From IMG/VR virus record IMGVR_UViG_2711768034_000011: a stretch of 8,060 nucleotides of DNA. One strand, 5' to 3'. This stretch comes from a virus (Duplodnaviria > Heunggongvirae > Uroviricota > Caudoviricetes). Shown here piece after piece: positions 1,369 through 7,763 of the stretch. Made by a program: the position numbers and the translations under genes. Positions within the stretch are counted from its first letter, which is position 1. Every line of letters begins with the position of its first letter. Under the pieces are notes generated by a model. It made no database searches, was not told where the DNA came from, and worked only from the letters and a program-made list of their open reading frames with translations.

Positions 1369-1444
1369 GCCGATATAGCTCAGTTGGTAGAGCAGCGCAT
1401 TCGTAATGCGAAGGTCGTAGGTTCGACTCCTATTATCGGCACCA
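1369..1444 (+). tRNA. thrW: tRNA-Thr (anticodon CGU), 76 nt with encoded CCA end
   Basis: Sequence GCCGATATAGCTCAGTTGGTAGAGCAGCGCATTCGTAATGCGAAGGTCGTAGGTTCGACTCCTATTATCGGCACCA; 7-bp acceptor stem GCCGATA/TATCGGC, D-loop and GTTCGACTCC T-arm motifs, anticodon CGT in the anticodon loop. A known phage integration target. Confidence 0.93.
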
Positions 1445-1458
1445 TTTAAATCAATAAG

Positions 1459-2622
1459 TTACACATCATTAGTACCTTCCTTATTTTTTGACTGGGACAA
1501 ATTTGGGACCGATGGGTTCAGGATCGAGTCTATTTGCCGTGCGTGTTCGGTAAGGTGATTAGGTGCGAGGTGAGCATATCGACGAACCATTTCGATAGAC
1601 TCCCAGCCTCCCATTTCCTGTAACACTGACAACGGGACACCGGCTTGAACCAGCCAACTTGCCCAGGTGTGTCTCAAGTCATGAAATCTGAAATCATCAA
1701 TACCAGCTCGTCTCAGCGCCGCTTTCCAGGCTGTGTTTGCGTCATACCGCATCTTCCTGACTGTTGGCGCTTTCGTTCCGTCTGGTTTGGTACAGCTTTC
1801 CTTGTACACAAATACCCAACGGTGATGATTCCCGATTTGTTTTTTCAATACGCGACATGCAGTATCATTCAGCGCAACGCCAATTGCGCGGTTTGATTTA
1901 CTCTCTTCCGGGTTTATCCATGCCACCCGGCGCTGCATGTCTATTTGTTGCCATTCAAGGTTGATGATGTTCGAGCGTCTTAAGCCTGTTGCCAGTGCAA
2001 ATTCAACAACAGACTTTAATGGCTCCGGACATTCATCAATCAGCCTTTGTGCTTCATGGGGCTCCAGCCAGCGGATCCGTTTATTCTTTGGTTGAGGCAC
2101 TTTAATAATTGGTGCCTTATCCAGCATTTTCCATTCACGCTCTGCGGCTCTTAGTAGGGCCTTTATAAATGAAAGATGCGTAGCCTTCGTTGCAACGGAC
2201 GCTGGTTTTGGCGTGTATTCTGGAACAGGTTTCCCTTTTTTTCTACATGCTTCTGCCCTGAGTTTCCAGTTTTCCTCATGACGCCGGTTCGTCATTTTCT
2301 GCATTGCTGAATAAATTTTTGATTCAGTAATGTCTCTTAGTTGCATTCCTGCGAAATGTTGAAGCCAGAATCCGATCCGGCTTTTGTCATCGTCCAGTGA
2401 TTTTTTATGTGCTTTCTCTTCGAGCCACCTGATACACGCCTCCTCGAACGTCATATCAGGTATTTCACCAAGTTTGCTGACCCGCCATGCTTCAGCCTTT
2501 AGCTTGTCATGGAGCTCTGTCGCCTGCCTTTTGTCCTTTGTTCCAAGAGACTGTTTAAATCTTTTACCGTTCGGCAATGTGAAACTGGCGTACCATATTT
2601 CACCTCTGCGGAAGAGTGACAT
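1459..2622 (-). CDS. int: Phage integrase, tyrosine recombinase, P22-type (387 aa)
   Basis: 387-aa ORF ending 14 nt from the tRNA 3' end; N-terminus [22 protein letters not shown] and C-terminal [13 protein letters not shown]...VRRYAHL catalytic boxes; SD-like AGAGGAAAG upstream of the ATG at 2622. P22 integrates at thrW (established knowledge). Confidence 0.93.
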
Positions 2623-4464: not shown

Positions 4465-5145
4465 TCATCGCCATTGCTCCCCAAATACAAAACCAATTTC
4501 AGCCAGTGCCTCGTCCATTTTTTCGATGAACTCCGGCACCATCTCGTCAAAATTCGCCATGTACTTTTCATCCCGCTCAACCACGACATAATGCAGGCCT
4601 TCACGCTTCATGCGCGGGTCATAGTTGGCAAAGTACCAGGCATCTTTTCGCGTCACCCACATGCTGTACTGCACCTGGGCCATGTAAGCCGACTTTATGG
4701 CCTCGAAACCACCGAGCCGGAACTTCATGAAATCCCGGGAGGTAAACGGGCATTTCAGCTCAAGGCCATTGCCGTCACTGCATAAACCATCGGGAGAGCA
4801 GGCGGTACGCATACTTTCGTCGCGATAGATGATCGGGGATTCAATAACATTCACGCCGGAAGTGAACTCAAACAGGGTTCTGGCGTCGTTCTCGTACTGT
4901 TTTCCCCATGCCAGCGCCTTAGCATTAACTTCCGTAGCCACACCGGTGCAAACCTCAGCCAGCAGGGTGTGGAAGTAGGACATTTTCATGTCAGGCCACT
5001 TCTTTCCGGAGCGGGGTTTTGCTATCACGTTGTGAACTTCTGAAGCGGTGATGACGCCGAGCCGTAATTTGTGCCACGCATCATCCCCTTGTTCGACAGC
5101 TCTCACATCGATCCCGGTACGCTGCAGGATAATGTCCGGTGTCAT
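4465..5145 (-). CDS. exo: Lambda-type exonuclease (Red alpha), 226 aa
   Basis: Near-identical to the phage lambda Exo sequence as I recall it ([40 protein letters not shown]...); 4-nt ATGA overlap with bet as in lambda. Confidence 0.95.
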
Positions 5146-5927
5146 GCAGCCACCTTCTGTTCAGAGGCTTTCTGTTTCAGGAATCCAAGAGCTTTCACTG
5201 CTTCGGCCTGTGTCAGTTCCGACGATGCGCGAATGTCGCGGCGAAATATCTGGGAACAGAGCGGCAATAAGTCGTCATCCCATGTTTTGTCCAGGGCAAT
5301 CAGCAGAGTGTTAATCTCCTGCATGGTTTCATCGTTAACCGGAGTGATGTCGCGTTCCGGCTGACGTTCTGCAGTGTATGCGGTATTTTCGACAATGCGC
5401 TCGGCTTCATCCTTGTCATAGATACCAGCAAATCCGAAGGCGAGACGGGCACACTGAATCATGGCTTTATGCCGTAACATCCGTTTAGGATGCGACTGCC
5501 ACGGCCCCGTGATTTCTCTGCCTTCACGGGTTTTGAATGGTTCGCGGCGGCATTCATCCATCCACTCGGTAACGCAGATCGGATGATTACGGTCCTTGCG
5601 GTAAATCCGGCATGTACAGGATTCATTGTCCTGCTCAAAGTCCATGCCATCAAACTGCTGGTTTTCATTGATGATGCGGGACCAGCCATCAACGCCCACC
5701 ACCGGAACGATGCCGTTCTGCTTATCAGGGAAGGCGTAAATTTCTTTCGTCCACGGATTAAGGCCGTACTGGTTGGCGACGATCAACAATGCGATGAACT
5801 GCGCATCGCTGGCATCACCTTTAAATGCCGTCTGGCGAAGAGTGGTGATCAGTTCCTGTGGGTCGACAGAATCCATGCCGACACGTTCAGCCAGCTTCCC
5901 TGCCAGCGTTGCGAGTGCTGTACTCAT
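5142..5927 (-). CDS. bet: Lambda-type single-strand annealing protein Bet (Red beta), 261 aa
   Basis: Near-identical to lambda Bet as recalled ([66 protein letters not shown]...). Confidence 0.95.
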
Positions 5928-5932
5928 CCGTT

Positions 5933-6229
5933 TTATACCTCTGAATCAATATCAACTTGGTGGTGAGCAATGGTTTCAACCATGTACCGGATGTGTTCTG
6001 CCATGCGCTCCTGAAACTCAACATCGTCATCAAACGCACGGGTAATGGCTTTTTTGCTGGCCCCGTGGCGTTGCAAATGATCGATGCATAGCGATTCAAA
6101 CAGGTGCTGGGGCAGGCCTTTTTCCATGTCGTCTGCCAGTTCTGCCTCTTTCTCTTCACGGGCGATCTGCTGGTAGTGACGCGCCCAGCTCTGAGCCTCA
6201 AGACGATCCTGAATGTAATAAGCGTTCAT
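5933..6229 (-). CDS. gam: Lambda-type Gam (RecBCD inhibitor), short 98-aa form only
   Basis: [21 protein letters not shown]... matches lambda GamS; AGGAG SD 7 nt upstream. The GamL-type N-terminal extension starts at an ATG at 6350 but is out of frame here (see findings). Confidence 0.93.
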
Positions 6230-6304
6230 GGCTGAACTCCTGAAAATGGCTGTGAAAATAGCGCCCGCGAAATGCCAGGCTGATTAGGAAAACAGGAAAG
6301 GGGG

Positions 6305-6448
6305 TTAGTGAATGCTTTTGCTTGATCTCAGTTTCAGCATTAATATACATTTTTTATAAGCGTCGACGGCTTCACGAAACATCTTTTCATCGCCAATAAA
6401 AGTGGCGATAGTGAATTTAGTCTGGATAGCCATAAGTGTTTGATCCAT
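6305..6448 (-). CDS. kil: Lambda-type Kil (host cell-division inhibitor), 47 aa
   Basis: [33 protein letters not shown]...[10 protein letters not shown] matches lambda Kil as recalled; AGGAG SD upstream. The listed 89-aa ORF 6305..6574 is this gene with a spurious upstream extension. Confidence 0.85.
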
Positions 6449-6581
6449 TTTTTGGGACTCCTGGCTGATTAAGTATGTCGATAAGGCGTTTCCATCCGTC
6501 ACGTAATTTACGGGTGATTCGTTCAAGTAAAGATTCGGAAGGGCAGCCAGCAACAGGCCACCCTGCAATGGCATATTGCAT
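6417..6581 (-). CDS. cIII: Lambda-type CIII (FtsH/HflB inhibitor), 54 aa
   Basis: Below the ORF-track length cutoff. Manual translation of the minus strand from the ATG at 6581 gives MQYAIAGWPVAGCP... and ends ...[15 protein letters not shown] with TAA at 6417-6419; AAGGAG SD 7 nt upstream; 32-nt overlap with kil as in lambda. Confidence 0.85.
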   Translation of the reverse strand: MQYAIAGWPVAGCPSESLLERITRKLRDGWKRLIDILNQPGVPKNGSNTYGYPD

Positions 6582-6653
6582 GGTGTGCTCCTTATTTATA
6601 CATAACGAAAAACGCCTCGAGTGAAGCGTTATTGGTATGCGGTAACGCCGCGC

Positions 6654-7022
6654 TCAGGCGGCTTTGATAGTCATATCATCTGAATCAAATATTCCTGATG
6701 TATCGATATCGGTAATTCTTATTCCTTCGCTACCATCCATTGTAGGCCATCCTTCCTGACCATTTCCATCATTCCAGTCGAACTCACACACAACACCATA
6801 TGCATTTAAGTCGCTTGAAATTGCTATAAGCAGAGCATGTTGCGCCAGCATGATTAATACAGCATTTAATACAGAGCCGTGTTTATTGAGTCGGTATTCA
6901 GAGTCTGACCAGAAATTATTAATCTTGTGAAGTTTTTCCTCTGTCATTAAGTCATGGTCGATTTCAATTTCTATTGATGCTTTCCAGTCGTAATCAATGA
7001 TGTATTTTTTGATGTTTGACAT
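6654..7022 (-). CDS. ea10: Lambda-type Ea10 (Ssb-like early protein), 122 aa
   Basis: MSNIKKYIIDYDWKASIEIEIDHD... matches lambda Ea10 as recalled. Confidence 0.9.
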   Translation of the reverse strand: MSNIKKYIIDYDWKASIEIEIDHDLMTEEKLHKINNFWSDSEYRLNKHGSVLNAVLIMLAQHALLIAISSDLNAYGVVCEFDWNDGNGQEGWPTMDGSEGIRITDIDTSGIFDSDDMTIKAA

Positions 7023-7157: not shown

Positions 7158-7181
7158 AGTGCAGTGTTTATTCTTTTGTTT

Positions 7182-7211
7182 GCGTGAAAATGAAACCCGC
7201 CTGAGCGGGTT
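7182..7211 (-). terminator. Candidate intrinsic terminator overlapping the stop of the AT-rich ORF
   Basis: Stem AACCCGC / GCGGGTT (7 bp, loop CTGA) at 7194-7211; on the minus transcript followed by UCAUUUUCACGC; on the plus strand followed by a T5 run 8 nt away, so possibly bidirectional. Confidence 0.35.
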
Positions 7212-7763
7212 ATGACCACTTTTTGTTTGGATTTCGTTGGTGAGCGTGGTTTACAGGATTATTTGATATACCCCATAACTCTGACTCGCTTATCTCTACA
7301 CGAGAGAAAGACCTGCTTTCTTTCAGTTCTTTTATAAACCTAGAACCTACGATGACATCTATTGTCCCAGAAAGTTCTTGTAAAAGATCTTTGTTTTTTC
7401 TGAGGAAGAAAACATCTTCTTTATATTTAATTTTTACATAGAATTTATTCTGTATTTTTAATATATCAAAGCATGGCAGATATCTATATCCCTCATGCTT
7501 TCGCCACTGCTTAACAATTATAACATCTCTTTCATTTACTGCATTAATCAGCCCAAGACCAAGTATAGGTATGAATATTCTATTGTCTGCCGAAAGCGTA
7601 CAATTATCACCACCAGGCAAATATGTATAAATCATGTCGGAATTTTTATACGCATCAACGAATGCACGTAAGAATCGTACATATTTTTGCCATCCGTTTA
7701 TACCAAATTTACCATATAAGTATTCTTTATTTGTTAGAAGAAAACTATTTGTATCAGGAGCCT
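7210..7763 (-). pseudogene. AT-rich orphan ORF of unknown function, probably 5'-truncated by IS1 (at least 183 codons of open frame; first ATG at 7635 gives 141 aa)
   Basis: Markedly lower GC than the flanking lambda-like genes; the frame stays open for 42 sense codons upstream of the ATG at 7635 right up to the IS1 junction, with no in-frame ATG/GTG/TTG and no SD before 7635. Confidence 0.5.

Follow-up and report, generated by a model that had tools for sequence, protein, structure and literature searches.

Gene content of the locus

The stretch of DNA that was analysed (the window, 8,060 nt, from IMG/VR record IMGVR_UViG_2711768034_000011) contains the early-left (Red) region of a lambdoid prophage at positions 4465-7022, on the minus strand. 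From the ORF list, exo (4465-5145), bet (5142-5927) and a complete gamS gene for a 98-aa Gam (5933-6229 including the stop codon, ATG at 6229-6227) were placed on this strand, and kil (47 aa, 6305-6448), cIII (6417-6581) and ea10/DUF2528 (6654-7022) lie on the same strand. kil was identified by Pfam (Lambda_Kil, E 2e-20) and through E. coli 13P484A, where PGAP annotates it in identical DNA; its 3' end overlaps an ATG at 6350. The exo-bet-gam order on the minus strand was the same in annotated identical DNA, with gam sitting directly upstream of bet and exo (the Red module), on the pL-side strand.

The closest phage matches of the window were SfI, phi458, 434 and lambda-like phages, at 96-98% identity. 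A prophage integrase gene (1459-2622, minus strand) directly adjoins a tRNA-Thr(CGT) gene (1369-1444, plus strand), and a host gene of the aldehyde dehydrogenase family lies upstream of the tRNA gene. In the SfI record the attP core is marked where the match to the window begins, and the border between tRNA-Thr and integrase is probably the prophage attachment site. The SfI match stops at 7181 and leaves outside it an ORF of 141 aa (7210-7635, minus strand), located between ea10 and the N-side genes in a segment of ~35% GC (neighbours ~50%). This ORF had no match in Pfam or PADLOC, and it could be a moron or accessory gene.

The gamS product aligned end to end with Gam models and structures. 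Pfam PF06064 was aligned over positions 1-98 of 98 (E 3e-65, 216.8 bits against a cut-off of 25), PHROG 259 over positions 1-98 of 98 (E 1e-60), and the PDB chains 5mbv_A and 2uuz_A over the full 98 residues by phmmer (E ~2.5e-61); in PGAP annotation the identical sequence is a 98-aa member of the Gam family. NCBIfam contains no Gam model. A Shine-Dalgarno motif, AGGAG (6237-6241, minus strand), was read from the sequence 7 nt 5' of the gamS ATG, and is the annotated ribosome-binding site in the curated phage 434 record. At ~97% identity to GamS, the window protein would be expected to inhibit RecBCD.

The kil-gam spacer compared with lambda

The 75 nt between kil and gamS (6230-6304, minus strand) probably form a non-coding leader in the window; the lambda GamL ORF reads through the counterpart of this spacer. 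Window positions 6190-6360 were aligned with lambda (NC_001416), 933W and 434. Five substitutions relative to lambda were found within this interval (6347 G>T, 6338 A>G, 6277 C>T, 6261 A>C, 6248 T>C), together with one length difference at 6243-6248 (minus strand), where the window reads CATTTT and lambda TATTT. In other words, CACAGCTATTTCAGGAG of lambda corresponds to CACAGCCATTTTCAGGAG of the window, by one T>C change (the C at 6248) and one extra T in the run at 6243-6246 (TTTT in the window, TTT in lambda). The window version of the junction was also carried by 933W. The T>C change and the length of the T-run were fully linked, only CCATTTTC or CTATTTC being seen in the sample.

An earlier note, made from the letters of this DNA, had compared the frame opened by ATG 6350 with the N-terminal extension of the 138-aa lambda Gam (GamL). 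The lambda sequence that it gave proved accurate when set against NC_001416, and the resemblance reflects nucleotide homology (~96%) and not chance. The alignment of 6190-6360 that the note had proposed confirmed the indel (TTT in lambda, TTTT in the window) and a different frame relationship in lambda, where the counterpart of ATG 6350 is in frame with gamS and opens the annotated 138-aa Gam. In the window the same ATG lies +1 to gamS and opens an ORF of 50 codons (6198-6350, minus strand) that ends with a stop at 6198-6200, a reading of the note with which both the sequence and the ORF list agree.

The claim that only the short Gam is encoded also held. The gamS frame is closed by a TAA at 6284-6286 (minus strand), 19 codons upstream of ATG 6229, which excludes any N-terminal extension, and again by the kil stop at 6305-6307; no ATG lies in frame about 40 codons upstream of gamS without an intervening stop. 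As the leader is one base longer than that of lambda, only the 98-residue GamS can be made from the window. An open stretch of 18 codons in frame before gamS was found in 65 of the 74 window-type loci.

Two of the substitutions, at 6347 and 6261, were seen in no other sampled locus, yet they are present in E. coli genomes that are 100% identical to the window. The change at 6347 turns a Trp of kil into Cys (AYKKWIL to AYKKCIL), and that at 6261 removes one outer base pair flanking the leader hairpin.

Frequency of the two junctions

The junctions were counted with two 45-mer probes centred on the indel, no 28-mer being common to both alleles. Among 5426 complete E. coli genomes, 2590 had the window-type junction (2901 places) and 906 the lambda-type junction (978 places), counts that are inflated by clonal sampling (e.g., of O157:H7 Stx prophages on one side and of laboratory lambda derivatives on the other). 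A sample of 124 loci, made up of about 120 IMG/VR contigs, four reference phage loci and the window, was ~70% window-type; lambda-type junctions numbered 37, and an in-frame extension of 40 codons was present in 34 loci. Deposited phage records gave 90 window-type and 90 lambda-type junctions. The window-type phages include 933W, VT1-Sakai, Stx2 converting phage I, phi24B and Stx2 phage 86, and the lambda-type phages include lambda and its laboratory derivatives, 434, SfI, Stx2 II and 1717.

A gam identical to that of lambda was also met on contigs of ~48.5 kb or of low coverage in Pseudomonas, Shewanella, Neobacillus, Kitasatospora and other assemblies. These contigs are almost certainly contamination with lambda control DNA, and the lambda-type counts in public data are therefore inflated.

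The 933W record gives gam as 98 aa, and so does PGAP annotation whichever the allele; the curated 434 record, too, has a 98-aa gam, although its junction is lambda-type. The 138-aa annotation was kept only in lambda records.

The window allele is the ordinary and commonest natural version of the lambda-type gam gene, neither a mutation nor a sequencing error, and it is already annotated as a 98-aa protein. The 1-nt insertion that the earlier note had described stands as a difference in length from lambda, but not as a notable lesion, since the window type is the majority allele. The outgroup leaders were too diverged around the indel site to orient the event as an insertion or a deletion. The comparisons point to the long ORF of lambda as the unusual state.

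Conservation of GamS and of the GamL extension

GamS alone is conserved, and the GamL extension is not. The Pfam PF06064 and PHROG 259 models have 98 positions and cover residues 41-138 of lambda GamL. Among the 120 best homologues listed, those at 73-91% identity were nearly all 97-100 aa long, and those of 138 aa were all at least 98% identical to the window GamS.

GamS was intact (97-98 aa) in 123 of the 125 loci with enough flanking sequence, and a GamL-type ORF was present in 43 of the 125, every one of them lambda-type. Where a lambda-type locus carried the lambda kil, the 138-codon ORF was intact in 42 of 43 cases. An unrelated gene lay upstream of gam in 44 of the 125 loci, and the GamL start codon is therefore absent there; this arrangement accounted for 43 of the 74 window-type loci. 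Where the upstream genes differ, the loci become homologous exactly at the stop codon CACTAA, which marks a mosaic boundary.

In about a third of the sampled gam loci, kil and cIII were replaced by an unrelated ORF of ~96 aa (MTTGGHPPPEY...LVEVFLDGRGNGLNH, then the stop; L053:2371-2790, minus strand, L075:9043-9462, plus strand, and some 40 further IMG/VR loci), for which no Pfam family was found. Rare Kil-GamL fusion ORFs of 171 aa were also seen in public assemblies (P0002, P0009, P0010), on lambda-type leaders in which the kil stop is lost (TAA>TAC) or the kil/GamL overlap carries small indels. Such fusions could be genuine variants or the result of faulty assembly.

More distant relatives were sought by a scan of genome contigs, which returned mostly lambda contamination in unrelated genomes and gave 8 informative loci. 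No in-frame ATG was found near codon -40 in the distant loci of Salmonella, Citrobacter, Klebsiella, Raoultella, Pseudescherichia and Yokenella. The open stretch in frame before the GamS-type ATG ranged from 1 to 38 codons, and the upstream neighbour was RecE, Kil, KilR or an unknown protein of 110 aa. The block CAGGAGTTCAGCC-ATG was identical in the Salmonella and Citrobacter Gam loci, at a protein identity of 73-76%, and an AGGAG-like Shine-Dalgarno motif preceded the GamS-equivalent ATG in all distant loci but L157, which has ACTGAGGTGTTT before the ATG instead.

The spacer also varied in length within the closer sample, at three positions in all, with a C-run of 4, 5 or 6 and a T-run of 3 or 4, and the indels of gamS were confined to rare single haplotypes. 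Substitutions were compared in 90 haplotypes, a sample that contains singleton variants and mosaic N-termini. Segregating sites at the three codon positions numbered 8/8/10 in the spacer and 34/28/42 in gamS, which itself showed weak constraint in this sample, and the synonymous to non-synonymous ratio was 10:18 in the spacer and 35:79 in gamS (Fisher p = 0.65). Judged from substitutions alone, there was no evidence either way for purifying selection on the GamL frame.

Hairpins in the leader and upstream of cIII

A consensus terminator scan and an MFE fold placed a terminator-like element at 6253-6280 (minus strand), in which GCCUG and CGGGC pair as a 5-bp stem around an 8-nt loop (6280-6263) and GCUAUUUUCA follows. 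By sequence this element has the features of a terminator, with five pairs of which four are G-C, the 8-nt loop, and then GCTATTTTCA. Compared with shuffled sequences, the fold gave z = -2.8 for lambda and z = -1.0 for the window, and single sequences ranged from -2.8 to +1.0, most of them non-significant. RNAalifold on 14 diverse leaders returned no consensus structure and predicted no pairs. Hairpins of differing sequence recurred at the same place in distant leaders.

A second terminator-like hairpin, at 6611-6630 (minus strand), immediately precedes the start of cIII; its 8-bp stem, AACGCTTCACTCGAGGCGTT, leads into TTTCGTTATG. We take the spacer hairpin (6280-6263) to match in position the lambda terminator tL2b, at about lambda coordinate 33141, and the hairpin at 6630-6611, upstream of cIII, presumably occupies the place of tL2a. 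Luk and Szybalski are said to have described, in 1983, the lambda tL2 cluster (tL2a, tL2b) as weak terminators of the pL operon. A literature search found no source for the coordinates of the tL2 terminators. The spacer hairpin could act as a terminator or as another element of the leader, and the spacer appears to behave as an untranslated leader.

Interpretation

The window, with its lambdoid prophage next to a tRNA-Thr gene in E. coli, very probably carries a common natural allele of gam from which GamS is the only product, the spacer being an untranslated leader and the GamL ORF of lambda an accident of a shorter leader. On this account, GamS (98 residues) would be translated from its own strong Shine-Dalgarno motif (AGGAG, 7-nt spacer, ATG 6229) on the pL transcript, and its dimer, as a DNA mimic, would plug the DNA-binding channel of RecBCD, as homology to the solved structures suggests. 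The 75-base spacer from kil to gamS would serve as a leader that is left untranslated and contains a terminator-like hairpin and the ribosome-binding site. In lambda and its close relatives a leader one base shorter joins the ATG inside kil to gamS and so creates the 138-codon GamL ORF, which is missing from the window and from most of its natural relatives. GamS would then be sufficient for function.

The best surviving alternative is that GamL is real and selected, restricted to the lambda-type haplotype, to which about a quarter of natural gam loci belong, and that phages with both GamL and GamS differ functionally from phages with GamS only. Gam is stated in the literature to exist "in two isoforms", and pBAD constructs of GamL and of GamS were both active in vivo (PMC5218532). 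Recent papers continue to describe two isoforms of Gam and to work with "full-length GamL" constructs (PMC5218532, PMC11785009, PMC11610958). The "GamL" of PMC12315714 is an unrelated phi80 protein and not the long Gam of lambda. Nothing published on the GamL frame of other lambdoid phages was found in the literature search. In support of a selected GamL, the long ORF is intact in nearly all lambda-type loci with the lambda kil (the 42 of 43 above), about one E. coli locus in four still has the lambda type, and potentiation by the GamL construct differed somewhat from that by the GamS construct in disc assays with K. pneumoniae (PMC5218532). However, an intact ORF is expected by default at a divergence under 3%, and the GamL construct also contains the GamS start; it probably co-produces GamS, because the internal Shine-Dalgarno motif and ATG are retained. 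The extension itself has no homologue outside near-identical DNA, no family model and no Shine-Dalgarno motif at its start, and it consists of out-of-frame kil sequence and of a leader with a terminator-like hairpin. The case against a selected GamL is made by the indel polymorphisms, the mosaic boundary and the distant homologues. We regard GamL as a genuine isoform of the lambda-type haplotype as unlikely, and the converse, that the ORF arose by accident in the lambda lineage and its product was never selected, as more likely.

A different role might be sought in the 50-codon ORF of the window, either as an independent small protein or through translation across the gamS ribosome-binding site that would regulate gamS initiation. 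The ORF begins with an ATG, spans the Shine-Dalgarno motif and start codon of gamS, has an A-rich tract before its own ATG, and is annotated as a second 'gam' CDS in the Stx2 phage 86 record. Against this, it matched no family in Pfam, NCBIfam or PHROGs, and no Shine-Dalgarno motif was found before ATG 6350, which is preceded by GCTTATAAAAAATG / GCTTATAAAAA. Neither PGAP nor the records of 933W and AU5Stx1 annotate it, loci with another upstream gene lack its start and first 15 codons, and in one sampled haplotype a TAT>TAG change places a stop inside it. A function of either kind is very unlikely, and the ORF is probably not a gene but a by-product, the remnant of a frame.

It is more improbable still that a GamL-like protein is made from the window by a programmed +1 frameshift, or by transcriptional slippage, at CAU-UUU-C, joining the 50-codon ORF to GamS. 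The site has a short U-run on which tRNA-Phe could re-pair from UUU to UUC, the next codon in the +1 frame is the rare AGG, and the 50-codon ORF ends just 30 nt into gamS. But the 0 frame continues with CAG, neither a slow codon nor a stop, and the site lacks an upstream Shine-Dalgarno motif such as that of prfB. A run of four U residues is generally too short for transcriptional slippage. No Shine-Dalgarno motif precedes ATG 6350, this start codon is missing from the 43 of 74 window-type loci where another gene lies upstream, and the further polymorphism in the length of the C-run shifts the frames again. The combination of conserved ORFs, slippery site and stimulator that marks a programmed frameshift was not found. 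The last alternative, that the extra T is a homopolymer error of sequencing or assembly and that the phage truly encodes the 138-aa GamL, has next to no probability: the difference does sit in a T-run, a type of site that some platforms miscount, but the run is just 3 versus 4 bases with the linked T>C change two bases away, the junction occurs in the 2590 complete E. coli genomes and 90 phage records (933W and VT1-Sakai among them), and the 301 bases at 6150-6450, 100% identical in at least 8 independent complete E. coli genomes (pig, dog, human and river-water isolates), speak against the homopolymer error that the earlier note had wished to exclude.

If GamL were genuine after all, a one-base polymorphism in the leader would split phages with GamL and GamS from phages with GamS only, with different potency or targets. 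If it is accidental, as we prefer to read it, the textbook annotation would be revised. For the window itself little follows: 933W-type prophages and many others of E. coli have this gam allele as their standard one, and current pipelines annotate it correctly, with 98 aa. The long ORF is limited to the lambda-type minority of natural loci and has no counterpart in more distant Gam genes. The comparison supports GamS as the biologically relevant protein, and likewise a revision of the 138-aa annotation still found in the reference records of lambda.

Comparison with known systems

Like the tL2 cluster of lambda, the window has two terminator-like hairpins with U-rich tails, at the positions that we take tL2a and tL2b to have. 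It differs from lambda tL2b in the flank of the spacer hairpin, where an A>C change costs one outer pair, and its fold was not better than those of shuffled sequences.

The protein was compared with the GamS form solved by crystallography and cryo-EM (2UUZ, 2UV1 and 5MBV, the last being GamS bound to RecBCD), with which it shares 95 of 98 residues. It starts at the same methionine as the GamS of these PDB entries, and differs from the 5mbv chain by three conservative substitutions. GamS acts as a dimeric DNA mimic that blocks the DNA channel of RecBCD (PMC5218532), and by analogy with the solved protein the mechanism of the window GamS should be the same.

Relative to lambda Gam (138 aa, 'GamL'; NP_040618, UniProt P03702), the window GamS is ~97% identical to the C-terminal 98 residues. 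The gene lies between kil and bet in both, and the upstream 120 nt are ~96% homologous. The lambda leader is 1 nt shorter, which places the ATG inside kil in frame with gamS, whereas in the window that ATG is +1 and its frame stops after 50 codons.

The Stx phages 933W, VT1-Sakai, phi24B, Stx2 phage 86 and AU5Stx1 have the CCATTTTC junction and a 98-aa gam with its own Shine-Dalgarno motif, as in the window. In 933W and its relatives the upstream kil-cIII arrangement is also that of the window and the kil-gam region is 99% identical, with few point differences, the changes at 6347 and 6261 being private to the window or rare.
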